From sequence record NC_001609.1: a stretch of DNA of 11,624 nucleotides, one strand, 5' to 3'. Made by a program: the position numbers and the translations under genes. This stretch comes from Enterobacteria phage P4. This document shows positions 20-11,460 of the stretch, one piece after another. The notes below the pieces were generated by a model. That model saw only the letters and a list, made by a program, of their open reading frames with translations, made no database searches and had not been told where the DNA came from. Numbering within the stretch: the first letter of the stretch is position 1; every line of letters begins with the position of its first letter.

Positions 20-246
20 CGCGCGCAAACCGACAAGTTAGTTAATTATTTGTGTAGTCAAAGTGCCTTCAGTACATACCTCGTTAATACATTGGAGCAT
101 AATGAAGAAAATCTATGGCCTATGGTCCAAAACTGTCTTTTTTGATGGCACTATCCTGAAAAATATGCAAAAAATAGATTGATGTAAGGTGGTTCTTGTC
201 AGTGTCGCAAGATCCTTAAGAATTCGTGGCATGAGAGAGTTAAAGG

Positions 247-648
247 ATGCTGAATCATGTATATGGATTAATTGGCGTTGTTGGGACCATAATCACTATT
301 GCTACTAGCTTCATCCGCAACCAAGATATTTCACAATGGTTGCTCGTTTGTTCTGGATGGTTAGCTGCTTTACTTATTGGATGGTTTACACACAGAACGA
401 TTAAAGCAATTAGCAACAACCACACGAATGTTATAAAAAGTAATATGGAGGTAATCAACAGTCATAATGAATCCAATCAAAACTTGATGGCTGAAAACAA
501 AGAATTGATTAAAGAACTTGCAAGAACTTCAGAACAGAAAGAGAAGATGGAAAGTATAGCTGCTTATCTTGCTACTCAGAACCCCCAAATTAACGCTATG
601 CCAAGAACAGCAAGCCGACCAGAAAATATCGATTCGGAGGCTAATTAA
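247..648 (+). CDS. gop: Gop, small two-transmembrane protein (host-killing in absence of Beta, per P4 literature)
   Basis: 133-aa ORF with ATG at 247 and only one in-frame Met near the start. Two hydrophobic helices (about residues 5-23 and 31-47) precede a charged, coiled-coil-like C-terminus. Stop TAA 646-648 sits 2 nt before the next ATG. Naming rests on recalled P4 order gop-beta-cII left of int. Confidence 0.65.
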   Translation: MLNHVYGLIGVVGTIITIATSFIRNQDISQWLLVCSGWLAALLIGWFTHRTIKAISNNHTNVIKSNMEVINSHNESNQNLMAENKELIKELARTSEQKEKMESIAAYLATQNPQINAMPRTASRPENIDSEAN

Positions 649-650
649 AT

Positions 651-1718
651 ATGAAAGTATATTTTGAAAATTACTCATACTATCCAGCCCTAAGAACACG
701 ATCAGCAGAAATGACCGGACTGAATAATTTATCATATGAGAATAAGAAAAAAATATTACCTTTAATTTCTTTGGGGAAATGGCCTCGCTCGGAAGAAATA
801 CAGGTATCGTTAGATAAAAGTTTAGAAGTGATGAGTAATCTCCCATTTATTTTGGATGTCACAAAGGATAATTCTCATCATTGCGCGTCAAGCTTCGAAC
901 TACTCTCTCCTGAGAATGGTTTTAAAAACTGGATAGAGTTTTGTTCCAGAAATGATAATATTATTCCAGTAGTCCAGATGCCGGATTCAGCAAAACTTAG
1001 AGATATATCTATCCAAGCCAGGGTTTTAGAGGAACTTAAAGGTTCAATTGCATTTAGAATTAGAAATCTAAATACAGACATTAATAAAACCCTGACGTCA
1101 CTAGTATCGATGAACTCTCCAGAAAATGCCATAGTTTTCATAGATTTGGGCTACATTAGAGGGAATGTATCTGCTATAACAGCTGCAGCAATAAATTCGA
1201 TTAATCAGATTAGAACTGAGATTCCTGAAGCCATAATTAGTGTGCTAGCAACAAGCTTCCCTAGTTCAGTTACAAATTTTTGCCGTGAAAATGGACAGTC
1301 CGGATATATTGATGTTATTGAGAGAGAATTGCATCAAAATATTGGTGGAAGTGATGTCGCTATTTATGGCGATCATGGTTCAATTCATTCAGTAGTGTAT
1401 GACAACATAATTGGGCGATATGTTCCTAGAATTGATATAGCGTTAAATGATTCATGGTATTTCGAGCGCCGCCCTGGGATGAATAAAGAAGGGTTCATTG
1501 AAGCTGCGAAATCAATTTTGGCAGAGTATCCACATTATCAAAGGGAGGACTCTTGGGGAGCTGCAATGATAAGAAATGCTGCTATAGGGGATATAGCAGG
1601 TATGGGAAGTCCAGCTAAATGGATTGCTGTTCGAGTGAATCTACACTTAAATAAGCAAATTGAGCTATCTGAAGCTCTACAGTATGGCTTTGATCATGAT
1701 GAGGAAGATCTTATCTAA
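651..1718 (+). CDS. beta: Beta protein (Beta_protein family), protects from Gop
   Basis: 355-aa ORF, ATG at 651 with GGAGG at 636-640, translationally coupled to gop. Clean single frame through an AT-rich region. Assigned as P4 beta by position and size; family assignment is from memory. Confidence 0.7.
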   Translation: MKVYFENYSYYPALRTRSAEMTGLNNLSYENKKKILPLISLGKWPRSEEIQVSLDKSLEVMSNLPFILDVTKDNSHHCASSFELLSPENGFKNWIEFCSRNDNIIPVVQMPDSAKLRDISIQARVLEELKGSIAFRIRNLNTDINKTLTSLVSMNSPENAIVFIDLGYIRGNVSAITAAAINSINQIRTEIPEAIISVLATSFPSSVTNFCRENGQSGYIDVIERELHQNIGGSDVAIYGDHGSIHSVVYDNIIGRYVPRIDIALNDSWYFERRPGMNKEGFIEAAKSILAEYPHYQREDSWGAAMIRNAAIGDIAGMGSPAKWIAVRVNLHLNKQIELSEALQYGFDHDEEDLI

Positions 1719-1749
1719 TAAAAAACTAGGGAAGGTTAGCCTTCCCTAG
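1718..1749 (-). terminator. Rho-independent terminator of leftward cII transcript, convergent with the gop-beta 3' end
   Basis: Perfect hairpin CTAGGGAAGG-TTAG-CCTTCCCTAG at 1726-1749. On the minus strand it is followed by a U-run (complement of A-run 1719-1725). It overlaps the cII stop codon (1746-1748) and lies immediately after the beta stop (1716-1718). Confidence 0.7.
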
Positions 1750-2540
1750 CCCACAACCCTTTTAAGTACTTTTTCCGGAATATAGGAAACATCATCGCCA
1801 TATTTCCTAACTATAGAGTCAACATCAACCTTATGGTATTCATTTAAAGATTTCTCCGAACAAGCCTTAAACTCAAACTTAACCAAAGAATTATTCCTTC
1901 TTTTAGCTTTGCTCAATAAGGCAAGATCGTTTATAGATATTTCTTGATTACCATGGAGTCTAGATAAAAAATCATTAGATGTCGCATGATACCTATTTTT
2001 AATAGATGTAATGACAAATTCTCTAATCTTGTTTAAAGATAACTTAGATGCCAAAACCTCAAGACAATCCCTATGTAGTTCATTTGAAAATGTAATTCCA
2101 TACTGATTAAGCAGATCTTTAAGCTCAGACTTAAGCAAAAAACCCAAATAAACAAATTTATTTAAGCGAGAGCAAACCCTTCCTTTTTGAATTATTTTAA
2201 AGCGTACGCTACTATTATTAGATTGAAATTCTACAACGCCAACATCTGATGAAACCCGTTTAGATACTTCACTGGTAAATTTTGGCGCGCACACAATTGT
2301 AACTTTTTCGAAGCTAGATTTAAAAATTTTTAACTGACCATCCAAGCGCTTAAGAGAGTCAAAATCGCTTTTTATTTCAAAAGCTTGTAGGCTTCCATTG
2401 GCAATAGCCAAATCAGCTCTTCTGCTCCAGTTAGCAACAACCATTTCATTAATGATCGTTGCATCACTAAGCATGCCTTTTTTATATAACCATTCAATTA
2501 GGGCTATTTTAACTTCCTGCTCTCGCAATAACTCAGCCAT
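1746..2540 (-). CDS. cII: cII protein, possible PD-(D/E)xK-type nuclease fold (inference)
   Basis: ORF track gives 1746..2555 with a GTG start and no visible SD; the first ATG is at 2540-2538 (MAELLREQ...), used here as the start. The N-terminal region contains E...RADL(x12)FEIK, resembling a D-(D/E)xK motif. Naming by position as the third nonessential P4 gene, transcribed leftward. Confidence 0.6.
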   Translation of the reverse strand: MAELLREQEVKIALIEWLYKKGMLSDATIINEMVVANWSRRADLAIANGSLQAFEIKSDFDSLKRLDGQLKIFKSSFEKVTIVCAPKFTSEVSKRVSSDVGVVEFQSNNSSVRFKIIQKGRVCSRLNKFVYLGFLLKSELKDLLNQYGITFSNELHRDCLEVLASKLSLNKIREFVITSIKNRYHATSNDFLSRLHGNQEISINDLALLSKAKRRNNSLVKFEFKACSEKSLNEYHKVDVDSIVRKYGDDVSYIPEKVLKRVVG

Positions 2541-2606
2541 GTTAATCACACTCACTTCACGTTGATTTTTATTATAGCAACTAACAATTAAAAACTCCAG
2601 ATTATG

Positions 2607-3926
2607 TTACTTAACACTCATTTTAAAAATCAACCAATAACTATTTTTATTTAAGTATTTCTTTGTATTTTGAATAATCATAAGGCTAATATATTTATTA
2701 CGGTTCATATCCAAATAATCAGCCCACCACTGCATCATTAAACGCCGCTCATCCAAATGCTCGGAGGTATGGATATATGCCGCACGTACATTATTACGCT
2801 CTGAGTGGCTCAGTTGCCTCTCTATCGCGTCATCACTCCATAACCCCGACTCCCCCAACGCACCACGCGCCATAGTCCTAAACCCATGCCCACACACCTC
2901 GGTTTTAGTATCATAGCCCATCGCACGCAATGCGCTGTTTACCGTGTTTTCACTCATAACCTTAGTTGCGTCATGATCCCCCGGAAAAAGCAGCTCTTTA
3001 TCACCACTAATCTGCTTTAACTGGTTTAATAAAATCATCGCCTGTCGACTAAGCGGAACGATATGTTCCTCTTTCATCTTCATGCCTCGGTACGAATAAC
3101 GCACACCTTTAATTTCTTCTCGCTTTGCAGGTATACGCCAAAGAGATTTATCGAAGTCGAATTCATCCCAACGTGCGAAACGTAATTCACTGGAACGCAC
3201 AAAAGTTAGCAAGGAAAGCTTGACCGCAATCCGTGTCATTACACGGCCACGATATGCAGCAAGACGTGCAAGAAACTCAGGGAATCGGCTAGAAGGTAAA
3301 GCAGGGTAATGTCGCGCTTTGGTTGTCGATAGCGCACCAGCCATATCGCTGGCTGGATTTGAGTCGATGTAATCGTTCTGTACGGCATAACGCATAATGG
3401 CTGTGACGCGCTGTTGCAGGCGCTGAGCGACATCGTGTTTGCCACTGGCATCAACTTTTTTAATCGGGGCTAACAGGTGGCTGGTTTTAAGCTGCCGAAT
3501 GTCGGACGAACCGATATGAGGGAATATATAAAGCTCAAGATAGCGAAGAACGCGCGATCGATGGTCTTCACTCCAGCGCTTGTTACTGGCATGCCATTCT
3601 CGGGCGATAGCTTCAAAAGTATATGCCCCCGAATTCTCGGCCCGAGCTTCTTTTTGTACGACTTTTGGGTCTATGCCCTGTACTAAAAGCTTTTTAGCTT
3701 CATCGCGTTTTGCTCTTGCCTGAGCAAGCGTCACAGTAGGCCAAACACCAAACGCAAGACGATCCTCTTTTTTGTCAGAGGGACGTCTGTATTTCATGCG
3801 CCAGTATTTGGAACCTTTGGCCGAAACCTCAAGATACAAACCACCACCATCGGCCATTTTGTAGGTTTTGTCTTTTGGCTTTGCGGTCTCGACCTGTCTG
3901 GCGTTGAGCTTCATTTGGGGGCACAT
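2607..3926 (-). CDS. int: P4-type tyrosine integrase (site-specific recombinase, phage integrase family)
   Basis: 439-aa ORF. N-terminus MKLNARQVETAKPKDKTYKMADGGGLYLEV is the typical P4-integrase arm-binding region; catalytic signature HGFRT...RAAYIHT near the C-terminus. First ATG at 3926, second at 3914. The C-terminal tail runs into AT-rich sequence. Confidence 0.9.
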   Translation of the reverse strand: MCPQMKLNARQVETAKPKDKTYKMADGGGLYLEVSAKGSKYWRMKYRRPSDKKEDRLAFGVWPTVTLAQARAKRDEAKKLLVQGIDPKVVQKEARAENSGAYTFEAIAREWHASNKRWSEDHRSRVLRYLELYIFPHIGSSDIRQLKTSHLLAPIKKVDASGKHDVAQRLQQRVTAIMRYAVQNDYIDSNPASDMAGALSTTKARHYPALPSSRFPEFLARLAAYRGRVMTRIAVKLSLLTFVRSSELRFARWDEFDFDKSLWRIPAKREEIKGVRYSYRGMKMKEEHIVPLSRQAMILLNQLKQISGDKELLFPGDHDATKVMSENTVNSALRAMGYDTKTEVCGHGFRTMARGALGESGLWSDDAIERQLSHSERNNVRAAYIHTSEHLDERRLMMQWWADYLDMNRNKYISLMIIQNTKKYLNKNSYWLIFKMSVK

Positions 3927-3965
3927 TTCTAATCGAAGTTAAGATGCCCCCAATTATGCCCCCAA
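3916..3965. repeat. Cluster of three (A/G)TGCCCCC(A) repeats, candidate integrase arm-type binding sites
   Basis: GTGCCCCCAA inverted at 3916-3925 (overlapping the int start codon), ATGCCCCCAA at 3944-3953 and 3956-3965. Two more copies lie at 4154-4173 on the other side of the att core. Confidence 0.5.
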
Positions 3966-4077
3966 TGATATCCGGATTTCAACGGACAACCTCGGAAGAC
4001 GCAGGACGAAAAAATCGCTGCAAGCATTGATTTTAAAGGGATATTTGGACTTTCTCGGATGGTCTTGGAAGTAAGAA

Positions 4078-4101
4078 TGGTGCCGAAGGCCGGACTCAAA
4101 C
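4078..4101 (-). other. attP core region with homology to the 3' end of a tRNA (leuX-type tRNA-Leu)
   Basis: TGGTGCCGAAGGCCGGACTCAAAC is the reverse complement of a tRNA T-arm/acceptor 3' end (...GTTTGAGTCCGGCCTTCGGCACCA). Only the 3' segment is present, as expected for a phage att core that regenerates the tRNA 3' end on integration. Confidence 0.55.
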
Positions 4102-4153
4102 ATCAAAATAAGTTAATGATAAAAAACAAATAATAAAACACAACAATGAAATA

Positions 4154-4173
4154 TGCCCCCTTTTGTGCCCCCA
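4154..4173. repeat. Two further (A/G)TGCCCCC repeats on the far side of the att core
   Basis: ATGCCCCC at 4154-4161 and GTGCCCCCA at 4166-4173, the same motif as the 3916-3965 cluster, bracketing the tRNA-like core. Confidence 0.5.
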
Positions 4174-4290
4174 CTGTTTTTCTGACCAATCTATTTTCAG
4201 CCCATCAATAAATCGGAAAGTTAAATCATTTTTAATCAGTAAGTTTGGATCCGTAGCTCGGATCCAAACCAGTGCATCTTTTATCCACAT

Positions 4291-4590
4291 AAAAAATTTT
4301 TTTTCGAAAGAACTGTTCACACTGTTCACCTTTCTGTTTTCTCCTTTTATTTCAGAGTGATAGGTGGTGAATAATGGGTGAAGGGTGAACATTCGATTCT
4401 TCACCTCCGGCATTCTGCCGATGTGACTCATACCGGTGATTAATCCTCCGCACTGAAATCACTCAGGAAGAAAAAAGTTTTTTTTGATTTGATTGTTCAC
4501 ACTGTTCACCTTTCGTTTTTCTCTTTTAATTTCAGTGTGATAACGGGTGAATATACGGTGAAGGGTGAACAGTGGATTGTTCACCTTCGG
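4291..4590. repeat. crr (cis replication region): two 120-bp direct repeats carrying alpha-binding type I iterons
   Basis: Copies at 4291-4410 and 4471-4590 are near-identical, with an exact 180-bp period (ACTGTTCACC at 4321 and 4501) and a 60-bp unrelated spacer. Each copy holds several TGTTCACC / GGTGAAYA octamers in both orientations. Confidence 0.75.
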
Positions 4591-4635: not shown

Positions 4636-6969
4636 TCAGGCTGTTGTAGGGTCGTCACATTTTGGCAGCCAGTCGCCGTAGCTTTCCTCTTTCAGCGTCA
4701 GGTTGGTCTGTATCCCCTGTTTGGTATGGCGTTTCTCGTAATTCAGTCCGTATTCCTTCAGCATCACCGGCAGCCCCAGCCCGAACATTTTCAGACTGAG
4801 TACATTCCGGTAGCCGTTTGCCTCCATGTAGGCCAGATAGGCGTGATAGAGGTATTTACGGTAATTGCGCGGGATGATACTGGCGTTCCCCATATACATG
4901 CCGCTGGTCTGCGGCAGGGTTTCCAGATAGCCGATAAAATCAAACGTCGGGTCGGCATCCCGTTTGATGTTCAGTGCCTCGTCTGAGTTCTGCTGGGACT
5001 GAAGCAGTGACCGGGCGAGCATCGGGTCGCTGAACTTCTGCATCAGGTGACGCACGATGACCGCCAGCTCGCGGGTGATTTTGTCCTTAAGCTGCGGGTC
5101 GCGCTCCTGCGGGGCTATCTGTTCCGGGAAGTGAATAATCACCCGTCGGCGTGACACGCCGCCGCTGCGGTCGGTGAAGCGCATCGGGTTATTGTTCACG
5201 GCCAGAATCACCGCCGGGATGTGCGTGGAGTACGCATCCCGGTATTTCGGGTCAACGGACACCGCATCGCCGCCGGTGATGGCCTTGAGTCCGGCACCGT
5301 CGCCGCTCCATTTTTCCTGGTCCGGCAGGCGTATCAGTGAGAAGCCAGTTAACGCGGCACGTTCACGCGGGGATTCCAGCGTCTCGATGGTGGCCGACGT
5401 GGCGTTATCCTCCCCGGCCAGCAGGGTGGCTATTTCGGCCATGATACTTTTGCCGCTGCCGCCGGGACCGGTCACCTCCAGAAAGAGCTGCCAGTCGTAG
5501 CGGTTTGCCAGCACCATAAACAGTGCAGCCAGAATCACGTCGCGTTTTTCCGCACGGCCACCGGCGGCACGGTCAAGCCAGCGCCAGAAGGCGGGGGCGT
5601 GGGTTTCCAGCGTTTCACCGTCCACCGGCGGGGTGAAATCCACATCGCACAGGGTGCGCATCCAGTGTGACGGACTGTGCGGGTGGAACGTGCCGTTCTG
5701 CGTGTCGAGCACGCCGTTACGAAAGCCAATCAGGCGGCGGGAGGGGGCTTCCTGCTGCGGAATAATCAGCTTCAGGGTATCCACCACGGAGGCCACCTTC
5801 CCGGAGGAGAACGGCGCACGCAGACGCTGAAACAGCCCGGCCACATCCCGGGCAAAGTCCTGTGGCGGCAGCACCTTCCAGACACCATTTTCATAGCGGG
5901 ACAGAAGCTGGCCGTTGGCATCGACCGCGAGCGCCTCGCCGTAATGCTCATAGATACGCATGGCCTTTTCGCTGGTACTCATGGCGGAAAACTCCGCTTC
6001 GCTCATGGTGTCGAACGGGCTTTCAGCCGGTGGCCGGATGGCATCGTAAATGGCCTTACGGGTGGCCTCCCCGCCGTACTGCGTGAAGGCATCATTCCAG
6101 TCACCGAAGACCGGCGGCAGGGCAACAACACCTTCACACGCATCTGCGGCTGCGGCGGCTTTTTTCTGGCCGTCACCACTGAGGTCACGGTCAGCGGCAA
6201 GGACAATCTGACAGGCGGGGTGCTTCTGCCGGGCAAGGCTGGCCAGAGAAAGGAGGTTCACGGAAGAAAGCGCCACCATCACCGTTTCACCGGTCAGGTG
6301 ATGTACGGTAAGTGCGGTCGCGTATCCCTCCGCTATCCACAGACGTTTTCCGGCCTGATTCTGTCCTTCAAGGGTGTGACAGGTGCCCCTGACCTGTCCG
6401 CCTTTCAGGGTGCGCTTACGGCCGTCAGCACTGATTAACTGAAGGTTAACCAGTTCGCCGCTGTCGTCATACAGTGGCACCACAAGGTCACCGGCGCGCC
6501 AGCTCACGCCACCGGCTCTGTGTGTGCCGGTCAGCATCCGGCATTCCCGGCCGGGAAAGCCCTTGCGGGTCAGGTAGGCGTTACCGGTTCCGGTACGGGT
6601 TTTCGCCATCAGGGTTTGTGCCAGTGCGGCGGCGTTCTTCCGGGCAGCGTCTGTTTCATCAACGGCGGCGGTCGTCACTGCCGGGTCAGCCGGTGGCAGG
6701 CTGCCGGTCACGGCAGCCACCTTTGCGGCCGCGTCGGACGGGGAAACACCAAAAACCTTTTCAACCAGTTTCAGGCCGTCACCGGCACCACACTGATTGC
6801 AGTACCAGGTGCCGCGCCCCTCCCTGTCATCAAAACGGAAGCGGTCACTCCCGCCACAGACCGGACAGGGCTGATGACGGTTCTTCAGCACCTGAATCCC
6901 CAGCGCCGGGAGAATACGCGGCCAGTGGCCGAGCGCATGGCTGACGGTGGCGGTTACGTTCATTTTCAT
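4636..6969 (-). CDS. alpha: Alpha protein: bifunctional DNA primase / helicase with C-terminal iteron-binding domain (P4 replication protein)
   Basis: 777-aa ORF. N-terminal zinc-ribbon CPVCGG...(x)...YCNQCG, primase region, then Walker A GPGGSGKS (D5-like helicase). AAGGAG SD 8 nt upstream of the ATG at 6969. Length matches recalled P4 alpha. Confidence 0.92.
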   Translation of the reverse strand: MKMNVTATVSHALGHWPRILPALGIQVLKNRHQPCPVCGGSDRFRFDDREGRGTWYCNQCGAGDGLKLVEKVFGVSPSDAAAKVAAVTGSLPPADPAVTTAAVDETDAARKNAAALAQTLMAKTRTGTGNAYLTRKGFPGRECRMLTGTHRAGGVSWRAGDLVVPLYDDSGELVNLQLISADGRKRTLKGGQVRGTCHTLEGQNQAGKRLWIAEGYATALTVHHLTGETVMVALSSVNLLSLASLARQKHPACQIVLAADRDLSGDGQKKAAAAADACEGVVALPPVFGDWNDAFTQYGGEATRKAIYDAIRPPAESPFDTMSEAEFSAMSTSEKAMRIYEHYGEALAVDANGQLLSRYENGVWKVLPPQDFARDVAGLFQRLRAPFSSGKVASVVDTLKLIIPQQEAPSRRLIGFRNGVLDTQNGTFHPHSPSHWMRTLCDVDFTPPVDGETLETHAPAFWRWLDRAAGGRAEKRDVILAALFMVLANRYDWQLFLEVTGPGGSGKSIMAEIATLLAGEDNATSATIETLESPRERAALTGFSLIRLPDQEKWSGDGAGLKAITGGDAVSVDPKYRDAYSTHIPAVILAVNNNPMRFTDRSGGVSRRRVIIHFPEQIAPQERDPQLKDKITRELAVIVRHLMQKFSDPMLARSLLQSQQNSDEALNIKRDADPTFDFIGYLETLPQTSGMYMGNASIIPRNYRKYLYHAYLAYMEANGYRNVLSLKMFGLGLPVMLKEYGLNYEKRHTKQGIQTNLTLKEESYGDWLPKCDDPTTA

Positions 6970-6983
6970 GGTGTTGTTCTCCT

Positions 6984-7304
6984 TCAGTGCAGTACCGGCG
7001 CTTTTATGTGACGGGCACAGAGTTCATCCATCACAACCAGCCCGAGAAAGGACAGCGACGGCGCGGCCTTCAGGGGGCCGGATTCCATTAAATCTTCCAG
7101 CAGGGCACAGGCTATCTGACGCCCTTTTTCCTCACCGTGCTGGCGCAGATAAAAGCCTTCCAGCTCAGCGGCGATGGCCGCCTCCAGTGACTCAAGGGTG
7201 AGATGCGGGTAGCGGTGCTGACGTTCGCACACGGTCAGCCAGGCACAGGCGACAGCGCGACGGTAAAGGGCAGCGCGTAAGACGGGCGGTAAGGGTGTTT
7301 TCAT
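6984..7304 (-). CDS. Hypothetical protein (106 aa) immediately upstream of alpha
   Basis: ORF with ATG at 7304 preceded by GGGAGAA SD; stop 14 nt before the alpha start. Function not recognised. Confidence 0.65.
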
Positions 7305-8419: not shown

Positions 8420-8505
8420 GATGGCGATAGCCCAGACGGGGGTGAGAATACCGGCTTCACAGGATACCGGCCAGCCCGGAGGCTGCCCCGCCTGAGCTAC
8501 CATTG
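8420..8505 (-). ncRNA. cI: Candidate cI immunity RNA region (approximate)
   Basis: Untranslated leader between the predicted PLE and kil. Contains a segment (plus-strand GGGGGTGAGAATACC, 8437-8451) complementary to a 10-mer direct repeat GTTCTCACGC found upstream (8660-8669) and downstream (8408-8417), matching the seqA/seqB/seqC logic of P4 immunity. Boundaries are approximate and from memory. Confidence 0.3.
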
Positions 8506-8689
8506 ACTCTGCGGCATAATGAGCGGACGCGGGCAGGATGCACGGAATGCCATCTGCACGACTGACCACACACCACACCATAATCTGGCGCTCTGTGGCA
8601 TTGATTGCGACACAAAAAAAGACGCGTGGCGCGTCATATGTCGCCTGTGAATTGCTCGGGTTCTCACGCCCGGCTGCCGATTTTGCGGC

Positions 8690-8729
8690 AGGCGAAAAAC
8701 TATATCCGCAAATGCCGGAAAAAGGCAAG
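8690..8729 (-). promoter_or_regulatory. Candidate early leftward promoter PLE (sigma70-like)
   Basis: On the minus strand, TTGCCT (-35, plus 8729-8724), about 18-nt spacer, TATAGT (-10, plus 8704-8699); predicted start near 8690. Lies just downstream of the vis stop. Confidence 0.3.
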
Positions 8730-9132: not shown

Positions 9133-9150
9133 TGTTCAGGCTGTCTTACA
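9133..9150 (-). promoter_or_regulatory. TGT-N12-ACA dyad: Delta/Ogr-type activator site of the late leftward promoter PLL
   Basis: TGTTCAGGCTGTCTTACA at 9133-9150, the P2/P4 late-promoter activator dyad, about 100 bp upstream of the vis start in the leftward direction. Confidence 0.5.
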
Positions 9151-9179
9151 ATGGCTGTGTGTTTTTTGTTCATCTCCAC

Positions 9180-9209
9180 TTAAAGTCATTTAAAGCCACT
9201 TAAAGCAAT
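9180..9209. promoter_or_regulatory. Three tandem cox-box-like repeats (TTAAAGNNAN) at exact 10-bp spacing
   Basis: TTAAAGTCAT / TTAAAGCCAC / TTAAAGCAAT at 9180-9189, 9190-9199 and 9200-9209, upstream of the PLL activator dyad. Resembles binding sites for helper P2 Cox (and possibly P4 Vis). Confidence 0.45.
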
Positions 9210-9308
9210 TTGTAATTTTTATAGTGAAATACAAATCGTTTCTTCTTATTCATTCCCGGCGAATTAATAAAAACAAACAGTAGTAAACAGCACAAAAAGC
9301 CCATCAAC

Positions 9309-9414
9309 GGGTGAACAGTGGTGAACAGACGGTGAACAGTCATTACTGCGATTGTTCACCCTTTAACTTACTGTATTACTTATCTTTTTTATTAAGGTGA
9401 ACAGAGGTGAACAG
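9309..9414. other. ori: origin of replication with six alpha-binding type I iterons and an AT-rich spacer
   Basis: GGTGAACA at 9310-9317, 9320-9327, 9331-9338, 9396-9403 and 9406-9413, plus inverted TGTTCACC at 9354-9361. AT-rich stretch 9362-9395. Same octamer as in crr. Confidence 0.65.
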
Positions 9415-9492
9415 TAAAATATAAAAAAACAAACAGTAAGCCGGTTTTTCCTGCGACCTTTTCCTGGCTTGCCGGTCTGAGGATGAGTCTCC

Positions 9493-10887: not shown

Positions 10888-11460
10888 ATGGAAAGCACAG
10901 CCTTACAGCAGGCCTTTGACACCTGTCAGAATAACAAAGCAGCATGGCTGCAACGCAAAAATGAGCTGGCAGCGGCCGAACAGGAATATCTGCGGCTTCT
11001 GTCAGGAGAAGGCAGAAACGTCAGTCGCCTGGACGAATTACGCAATATTATCGAAGTCAGAAAATGGCAGGTGAATCAGGCCGCCGGTCGTTATATTCGT
11101 TCGCATGAAGCCGTTCAGCACATCAGCATCCGCGACCGGCTGAATGATTTTATGCAGCAGCACGGCACAGCACTGGCGGCCGCACTGGCACCGGAGCTGA
11201 TGGGCTACAGTGAGCTGACGGCCATTGCCCGAAACTGTGCCATACAGCGTGCCACAGATGCCCTGCGTGAAGCCCTTCTGTCCTGGCTTGCGAAGGGTGA
11301 AAAAATTAATTATTCCGCACAGGATAGCGACATTTTAACGACCATCGGATTCAGGCCTGACGTGGCTTCGGTGGATGACAGCCGTGAAAAATTCACCCCT
11401 GCGCAGAACATGATTTTTTCGCGTAAAAGTGCGCAACTGGCATCACGTCAGTCAGTGTAA
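10888..11460 (+). CDS. psu: Psu, polarity suppression protein (Rho antagonist / capsid decoration)
   Basis: 190-aa ORF, last gene of the sid-delta-psu operon. Size and position match recalled P4 psu. Confidence 0.88.
   Translation: MESTALQQAFDTCQNNKAAWLQRKNELAAAEQEYLRLLSGEGRNVSRLDELRNIIEVRKWQVNQAAGRYIRSHEAVQHISIRDRLNDFMQQHGTALAAALAPELMGYSELTAIARNCAIQRATDALREALLSWLAKGEKINYSAQDSDILTTIGFRPDVASVDDSREKFTPAQNMIFSRKSAQLASRQSV

Follow-up and report, generated by a model that had tools for sequence, protein, structure and literature searches.

We analysed a stretch of 11,624 bp (the window hereafter), which is the complete genome of Enterobacteria phage P4 (NC_001609.1) at full P4 length, with regard to the gop-beta-cII module near its left end. 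The module consists of three contiguous genes, of which gop (247-648, plus strand, 133 amino acids) and beta (651-1718, plus strand, 355 amino acids) are co-directional and cII (1746-2540, minus strand, 264 amino acids) is convergent. Positions 1-2640 are 100% identical to the GenBank entry M27748, titled 'Bacteriophage P4 gop, beta and cII genes'. The open reading frame (ORF) of gop is also annotated as a coding sequence in GenBank, and each of the three genes gave a full-length PADLOC match (gop, model PDLC03001, E = 4.8e-70; beta, E = 8e-188; cII, model cll, E = 3.5e-113). Hundreds of homologues of gop, beta and cII were found and, judged by these matches, all three are real genes. In P4 the module is an already published defence system, for which we found no mechanistic study in the literature. 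The block is textbook P4 with published defence activity, so its presence in the reference genome is not a new finding. New are the predicted fold of Beta, the invariant E/D/ExK/Q set of cII together with a SAP-like motif, the strict pairing of Beta with cII, the existence of two-gene variants and of variants with a Peptidase_M78 protein, the position of prophage copies next to CI repressors, and the identification of the published trigger orf184 as mEp213 gp45.

The original prediction, which had been made from the sequence without database searches, placed the three ORFs correctly but started cII at the GTG at 2555, up to which the ORF reaches (269 amino acids). The protein most likely has 264 amino acids and starts at the ATG at 2540, because GenBank and PGAP both place the start there and the homologues begin at the same methionine. 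The same prediction described the module as the only strongly AT-rich coding block of the element, and this is essentially right. The module has a GC content of 0.359, compared with 0.462 for int and 0.542 for the remaining genome, and the two further AT-rich blocks, at approximately 4050-4500 and 9150-9450, are apparently non-coding and hold iterons that are described below.

As in type II toxin-antitoxin pairs, gop and beta form one tightly coupled operon. The gop stop codon (646-648) and the beta ATG (651) are separated by a gap of 2 nt, and the Shine-Dalgarno sequence for beta, GGAGG (636-640, plus strand), lies within the 3' end of gop, which agrees with the translational coupling that had been proposed. 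The tight spacing is kept in relatives, at 1-26 nt. A consensus scan predicted a candidate sigma-70 promoter for gop-beta (TTGTCA-16 nt-AAGAAT, 196-223, plus strand) with 9 of 12 matches, in a region that held fewer promoter-like sites than its own shuffles. For cII, a candidate extended -10 promoter (TGcTATAAT, 2571-2579, minus strand) was read from the sequence past the int stop; the two-hexamer promoter scan did not pick it up. Between the convergent genes, the terminator scan gave a hairpin terminator of cII (1717-1752, minus strand) with a 13-bp stem, a loop of 4 and a T-run. The hairpin itself occupies 1723-1752 and the T-run is found solely on the cII strand, so that cII does have the terminator of its own that was claimed for it, and a GenBank regulatory feature (1720-1749) coincides with it. 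As a separate observation, a 14-nt segment of beta (1253-1266) shows 93% complementarity with the left hairpin arm (1724-1737), which could be due to chance or could reflect an alternative pairing in the gop-beta mRNA. No meaningful repeats were found in positions 1-2700, and no Rfam family matched there.

Hydropathy gave two hydrophobic segments in Gop, at approximately 5-23 and 28-49, in line with the two N-terminal transmembrane (TM) helices first proposed; the tail behind them is helical and charged. A coiled-coil tail is plausible given weak Pfam coiled-coil matches and the HHpred matches to FtsL_2 and PspB. The conserved motifs of the family are SGW(L/F)AALL and a C-terminal PR(R/x)A. 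In Table S3 of Rousset 2022 (PMC9122126), the HHpred matches of Gop are PspB, FtsL_2 and SLATT_4. The statement that Gop kills the host unless Beta is present is backed by Ghisotti 1990, as cited in a passage of Rousset 2022 (PMC9122126) that describes Gop as toxic without Beta. Gop would thus be the killing component and would act at the membrane, where damage is suggested by its topology and its weak SLATT, PspB and FtsL similarity.

Beta belongs to the Pfam family Beta_protein (PF14350), with E = 4e-56 and 191 bits against a cutoff of 27. Besides its own PADLOC model it matched PD-Lambda-2_C (E = 8e-14). The protein structures that we used for Beta and cII are predictions. In its model Beta is a high-confidence TIM barrel, (beta-alpha)8, outside any known family, and it carries an enzyme-like set of invariant polar residues that includes E20, D241 and H332. 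The family comprises approximately 1,300 clusters at 50% identity, every one of which is single-domain. PDB sequence and profile searches with Beta returned noise only. We considered and rejected Beta as a transglycosylase of the TGT/DpdA type, as the specific structural and sequence similarity that this would call for was not found: neither TGT nor DpdA appeared in the Foldseek top 50, no match reached E <= 0.001, and identity to these enzymes was at most 11%. TGT has a zinc site, and Beta has no Cys/His cluster resembling it.

The third protein, cII, belongs to the NCBIfam family sce7726_fam (sce7726 / PF26915), with 151 bits against a cutoff of 70. In the numbering of the 269-amino-acid ORF, a nuclease-fold domain of the PD-(D/E)xK type is found at approximately 11-125 and a SAP-like motif at 140-169. 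The predicted structure shows the alpha-beta-beta-beta-alpha-beta core of the PD-(D/E)xK nuclease fold, and the catalytic D...(D/E)-x-K motif is carried on strands 2 and 3 by D48 and E60-I-K62. Residues E37, D48, E60-I-K62 and Q74 do not vary across 52 homologues, nor do they vary in any intact copy from the 64 loci that were retrieved with Beta. The protein is basic (isoelectric point, pI, 9.4), and we predict a DNA-binding nuclease with an intact catalytic motif. Pfam gave no match for P4 cII, and for the 52 homologues it gave no nuclease family, with SAP in 2 members; PDB sequence and profile searches with cII gave nothing beyond noise. The role of cII had been described as unresolved, which is in part out of date, since Table S3 of Rousset 2022 (PMC9122126) lists HHpred matches of cII to MmcB-like proteins (99.8%), NucS and several PDDEXK families. 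The main-text passages on the module in Rousset 2022 (PMC9122126) do not mention this MmcB-like/PD-(D/E)xK assignment. We found no biochemical data on cII nuclease activity in the literature.

In order to compare related loci, we retrieved them by two Beta peptide patterns; the resulting set favours the P4-like Beta subfamily and includes near-duplicates. In 65 of 65 assessable Beta loci, cII was immediately downstream of Beta and convergent with it. This holds for 28 of 28 species genomes, where cII has 27-75% identity and the hosts are Beta-, Gamma- and Alphaproteobacteria, including four Photorhabdus species, and one Thermoguttaceae metagenome-assembled genome. It also holds for viral contigs (30 of 30 assessable), distant family representatives (4 of 4) and the initial contexts (3 of 3). 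In the reverse test, for which we took the three cII homologues that are most distant, an adjacent convergent Beta was present in 3 of 3. Of 64 loci, 41 have Beta and cII genes whose 3' ends overlap; the overlap is exactly 4 nt long in 14 loci and reaches 71 nt at most (for example, 6053-6056 in locus L011 and 6013-6083 in locus L014). With overlapping 3' ends both transcripts must read into each other, and antisense or interference control at the Beta/cII junction is possible. P4 belongs to the minority, and the 27-nt gap between its Beta and cII contains the terminator.

The gene upstream of Beta is less constant. Most loci have a Gop-like protein there, with two TM segments, a coiled-coil region, the SGW(L/F)AALL motif and the PR(R/x)A tail. 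In 8 loci, from Photorhabdus, Curvibacter, Caballeronia and Paraburkholderia, Beta and cII form a two-gene island with no Gop-like membrane ORF (among them L028, L033, L012, L015/L017 and L016, at approximately 5000-7000 in each). Some of these two-gene islands apparently lie between housekeeping genes. In 5 further loci a 2-TM protein and a Peptidase_M78 protein are followed by Beta and a convergent cII (L032, 3697-6687; L035, 2-2473; L039, 840-3551; L080, 3688-6344; L081, 4001-6638). The peptidase of this variant has CapP as its best PADLOC match (E approximately 1e-28). A CapH-like helix-turn-helix (HTH) repressor was expected ahead of a peptidase with such a match, and the small ORF found there encodes a membrane protein instead. 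The four-gene M78 variant looks intermediate between gop-beta-cII and PD-lambda-2. Beta-cII is therefore the invariant core of these loci, and Gop is a facultative front-end. Decaying copies of the pair, in which Beta and/or cII is split or truncated, were seen at L029 (4992-7082), L030 (4612-6605) and L031 (4986-6228); their hosts are Photorhabdus cinerea, P. asymbiotica and Curvibacter sp. HBC28. In Serratia ficaria (L005, 1-9267), the module lies in an integrase-bounded island beside a Type I restriction-modification system (HsdS, HsdR) and an AAA_13 ATPase gene, and this region looks like a small defence island.

In the prophage loci, the gene directly upstream of the module encodes a CI-type repressor (HTH plus Peptidase_S24) and is co-oriented with it, in 9 of 10 viral loci tested and in L002, L003 and L079. 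Since the module is directly downstream of such a repressor, it would be expressed in the lysogen.

The proposed anti-phage activity has been demonstrated for exactly this block. According to the passages of Rousset 2022 (PMC9122126) that deal with the system, it was cloned from the P4 reference NC_001609 with its native promoter and protects E. coli against lambda and P1. The statement that the trigger is unresolved is out of date. Silas 2023 (bioRxiv 10.1101/2023.04.06.535777) reported a phage accessory gene, orf184, whose early protein causes cells to die in a gop-beta-cII-dependent manner, both in ECOR59 and in a lab strain in which the system was reconstituted. In the ECOR59 row of their Supplementary File 5, the survivors of orf184 induction carry Tn5 in 'protein beta' or 'protein gop', and cII is not listed. 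By means of the first 30 residues in the AlphaFold file of that study, we located orf184 as gp45 of phage mEp213 (YP_007112388, 107 amino acids). It lies in the mEp213 pL operon between N and cIII/kil, and the counterpart slot in lambda holds the anti-restriction gene ral. The protein is very acidic, with a pI of 4.1 and a net charge of -17 over 107 amino acids. It has no Pfam family, and its PHROG is without known function. The mEp213 pL operon (NC_019720, 30265-32636; L076, 953-3324) has two N-type antiterminator genes, gp51 and gp47; gp47 and the small ORF gp46 are just upstream of orf184, and three further small ORFs lie between the N genes. Homologues of orf184 were found in 83 phage records, with Burkholderia, Pseudomonas, enterics (including the P1-like phage D6) and Vibrio as hosts, and this host range mirrors the range of the module. 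A search of both the lambda and the P1 genomes gave no orf184 homologue at E <= 10, and therefore orf184 cannot be what triggers defence against lambda or P1.

The location of the module had been described as a variable hotspot of P4-like satellites. On the left, the window begins with GGCGAGGCGGGGAAAGCAC (1-19, no strand assigned), which, from P2 and P4, we take to be the left cohesive end (cos); it forms the edge of the cargo slot. On the right the slot is bordered by int, the P4 integrase gene (2607-3926, minus strand; ORF and GenBank annotation). In the circular or integrated form its left border is psu (10888-11460, plus strand; found as an ORF), which E. coli genome annotations list as 'phage polarity suppression protein'. 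The order in the E. coli IHE3034 prophage, psu-gop-beta-cII-int-tRNA-Leu, agrees with the layout here, so the placement between cos/psu and int stands. Relevant passages of Rousset 2022 (PMC9122126) describe the psu/cos-int slot as a hotspot that adjoins cos, and count 5,251 loci in which the genes take more than 300 arrangements. We also ran the comparison of the psu-int interval. Of 5,426 complete E. coli genomes, 1,069 carry psu at an identity of at least 95%, at 1,276 places in total. The module was present in 39 of the genomes of this psu survey, in all of them at an identity of at least 99%, chromosomal and as a single copy. Alternative, unrelated cargo of the syntenic slot included a DEAD-box helicase pair, a reverse-transcriptase pair and a 693-amino-acid ATP-binding protein. 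The module thus lies between psu/cos and int in a slot whose content varies among otherwise syntenic elements, as hotspot cargo does. Its dispensability for the P4 life cycle also receives support: in P4 phasmids the region 247-4065 has been replaced by cargo, and a passage of Rousset 2022 (PMC9122126) describes the replacement of gop by KanR.

Outside the module, the octamer TGTTCACC occurs in 11 copies where 0.3 would be expected by chance, in two clusters (4323-4585 and 9310-9413) that coincide with the two other AT-rich blocks. We take these clusters to be the non-coding crr and ori sites of P4, which are bound by the alpha protein. The first cluster is shared in part with an ORF of 111 amino acids at 4096-4431 (minus strand), which probably does not represent a gene. 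Two Rfam families matched above their gathering scores, namely C4 antisense RNA (8420-8507, minus strand, 74.9 bits) and the Hfq-binding RNA isrK (8615-8692, minus strand, 60.8 bits). These matches at 8420-8692 are presumably the P4 immunity RNA region.

In order to interpret these data, we first considered what Beta may do. A pure antitoxin should not turn up as a suppressor, and beta did so in the Tn5 screen (Silas 2023). Insertions in beta have no polar effect on gop, which precedes it. In PD-lambda-2, the third component, PD-lambda-2C, is a Beta homologue that is needed for defence and not for toxin neutralisation (Vassallo 2022, PMC9519451). Because of the beta::Tn5 suppressors, the PD-lambda-2C result and the presence of Beta in loci that have no Gop, Beta appears to be required for firing and not only for restraint. 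The designation of the module as a toxin-antidote system is thus probably incomplete: the toxicity of Gop without Beta agrees with it, but beta::Tn5 suppresses killing, PD-lambda-2C is not a neutraliser, and Beta is kept where Gop is absent. More generally, the comparative data do not fit the 30-year-old picture of a Gop toxin with a Beta antidote.

The reading that we prefer, and to which we would give about as much credence as doubt, is that Beta is the switch and Gop the membrane killer, with cII acting together with Beta on DNA. Beta would keep Gop silent in uninfected cells. An early function of the infecting phage (orf184-like; something else in lambda and P1) would then act, with Beta required to release or activate Gop, and Gop would damage the membrane and abort the infection. 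Together, cII and Beta may act on DNA, with cII most likely cutting or sensing phage DNA; in the two-gene loci cII would be the sole recognisable effector. The module would be expressed by a resident satellite or prophage in order to stop other phages.

Several points weigh against this reading. The published protection is that of the three-gene block as a whole, and cII is absent from the orf184 suppressor list. The viability of beta::Tn5 cells in which gop is intact is at odds with the classical finding of killing by Gop in the absence of Beta, and mRNA destabilisation or copy-number effects could explain the beta::Tn5 survivors without a sensor role of Beta. Membrane damage by Gop is argued solely from topology and weak SLATT/PspB/FtsL similarity, and the structures behind the folds of Beta and cII are predictions. 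Finally, the figure of 65 of 65 overstates the number of independent observations, as near-duplicates are included, and covers the P4-like Beta subfamily only.

A more elaborate scheme, which we regard as a tentative possibility, takes Beta and cII as a self-sufficient and widespread two-gene immune core, made of a TIM-barrel sensor enzyme and a SAP-bearing PD-(D/E)xK nuclease that are fixed in a convergent order with overlapping 3' ends, with interchangeable front-ends (Gop, or the 2-TM protein with M78). Rather than an antitoxin, Beta would be a switch that responds to the state of cII or of the infection, and Gop a suicidal back-up for cases in which anti-nucleases such as the acidic orf184 neutralise cII.

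It is rather unlikely, in our estimate, that the system works as a two-layer guard, in which cII is a first-line nuclease, acidic anti-nucleases of the orf184 type block it, and Beta monitors cII and unleashes Gop. The opposite charges of orf184 (pI 4.1, -17) and cII (pI 9.4), the position of orf184 in the pL accessory slot where lambda has ral, and the occurrence of orf184 homologues in phages of module-carrying host groups (Burkholderia, Pseudomonas, enterics and Vibrio) would fit such a guard. So would the fact that Beta and cII are never apart and the lack of cII among the suppressors, as expected if loss of cII mimics its inhibition. However, binding of orf184 to cII and DNA mimicry by orf184 are purely hypothetical, the two-gene loci have no Gop to unleash, and lambda and P1 are blocked although they are without orf184. 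In addition, the P4 genetics of 1990 reportedly treated cII as non-essential, which would be surprising if Gop were set off whenever cII is lost.

That Gop and Beta are a plain toxin-antitoxin or addiction pair that stabilises P4, with cII as an unrelated passenger, is very unlikely. In favour of an addiction pair are the toxicity of Gop in the absence of Beta, the tight coupling of gop with beta within a single transcription unit, and the ability of P4 to be maintained as a plasmid. The pair would leave unexplained why all assessable Beta loci, in a planctomycete as well as in Alpha-, Beta- and Gammaproteobacteria, have an adjacent and convergent cII, why the reverse also holds, and why Beta is kept with cII where Gop is absent. 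Moreover, beta::Tn5 suppresses killing and does not cause it, the block protects against phages, and most copies are chromosomal prophage cargo and not plasmid-borne.

We consider it highly unlikely that the module resembles restriction-modification, with Beta as a DNA-modifying TIM barrel (compare the DNA-guanine transglycosylase DpdA) that shields host DNA, and cII as its cognate nuclease acting on unmodified phage DNA. The Foldseek, identity and Cys/His results given above for TGT and DpdA argue against such a Beta, cells with beta::Tn5 and intact cII survive, so that cII is not lethal without Beta, and both Gop and the killing by orf184 would be left unexplained. Finally, the name of cII and its position beside int might suggest that it regulates lysogeny or excision of the element and has no part in defence, but this is extremely unlikely, as elsewhere cII accompanies Beta and not an integrase (in CI-adjacent prophage immunity regions and in small islands between housekeeping genes), and its catalytic residues are invariant, which a pure regulator would not need.

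One practical consequence is that detection rules that demand all three genes are expected to miss the two-gene and the M78 variants.

With regard to known systems, the block is the P4 gop-beta-cII system itself (Ghisotti 1990; Rousset 2022; PADLOC), with the same sequence and no difference. Gop resembles the SLATT-type 2-TM proteins and other small membrane effectors of abortive infection in having two N-terminal TM helices, a cytoplasmic helical tail and toxicity. HHpred matched it to SLATT_4 at 92.8% and E = 4.4 (Rousset Table S3, PMC9122126), and in Pfam it gave weak matches to S_4TM and Cap17-like_N, all below the family thresholds, with no SLATT family match at E <= 1. Unlike SLATT systems, the P4 module is without a nucleotide-signalling partner (SMODS or SLOG), and Gop has conserved motifs of its own. 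The predicted nuclease cII resembles the MmcB-like and NucS-type PD-(D/E)xK nucleases but is without membership in them at the level of hidden Markov models, and it adds the SAP-like motif, a C-terminal helical domain and the constant pairing with Beta.

The PD-lambda-2 system, which consists of a HigB-like A, an Xre-peptidase B and a Beta-like C component, also defends against lambda, and its C component is homologous to P4 Beta. It differs in that P4 has no HigB-like or Xre-peptidase gene and the partner of Beta is the 2-TM Gop; accordingly, the PADLOC scan of the P4 module gave no PD-Lambda-2_A or PD-Lambda-2_B match, and only Gop is upstream of Beta. When we probed distant Beta relatives for a true PD-lambda-2C, every candidate matched the 'beta' model better.

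The last comparison is with RexA and RexB of lambda. The rexAB genes are directly downstream of lambda cI and encode a membrane protein and a cytoplasmic partner that bring about death on superinfection; in the lambda record, rexB is annotated as an exclusion protein and is close to the pL operators. No sequence or fold relation between RexA or RexB and the module was found, apart from a sub-threshold RexB Pfam match in one planctomycete 2-TM protein. Rex also differs in having no nuclease partner, and RexB has 4 TM segments whereas Gop has 2. Nevertheless, the prophage relatives of the module hold the same slot, directly downstream of a CI-type repressor and co-oriented with it, and this position, like that of rexAB in lambda, points to a shared strategy of exclusion expressed in the lysogen.

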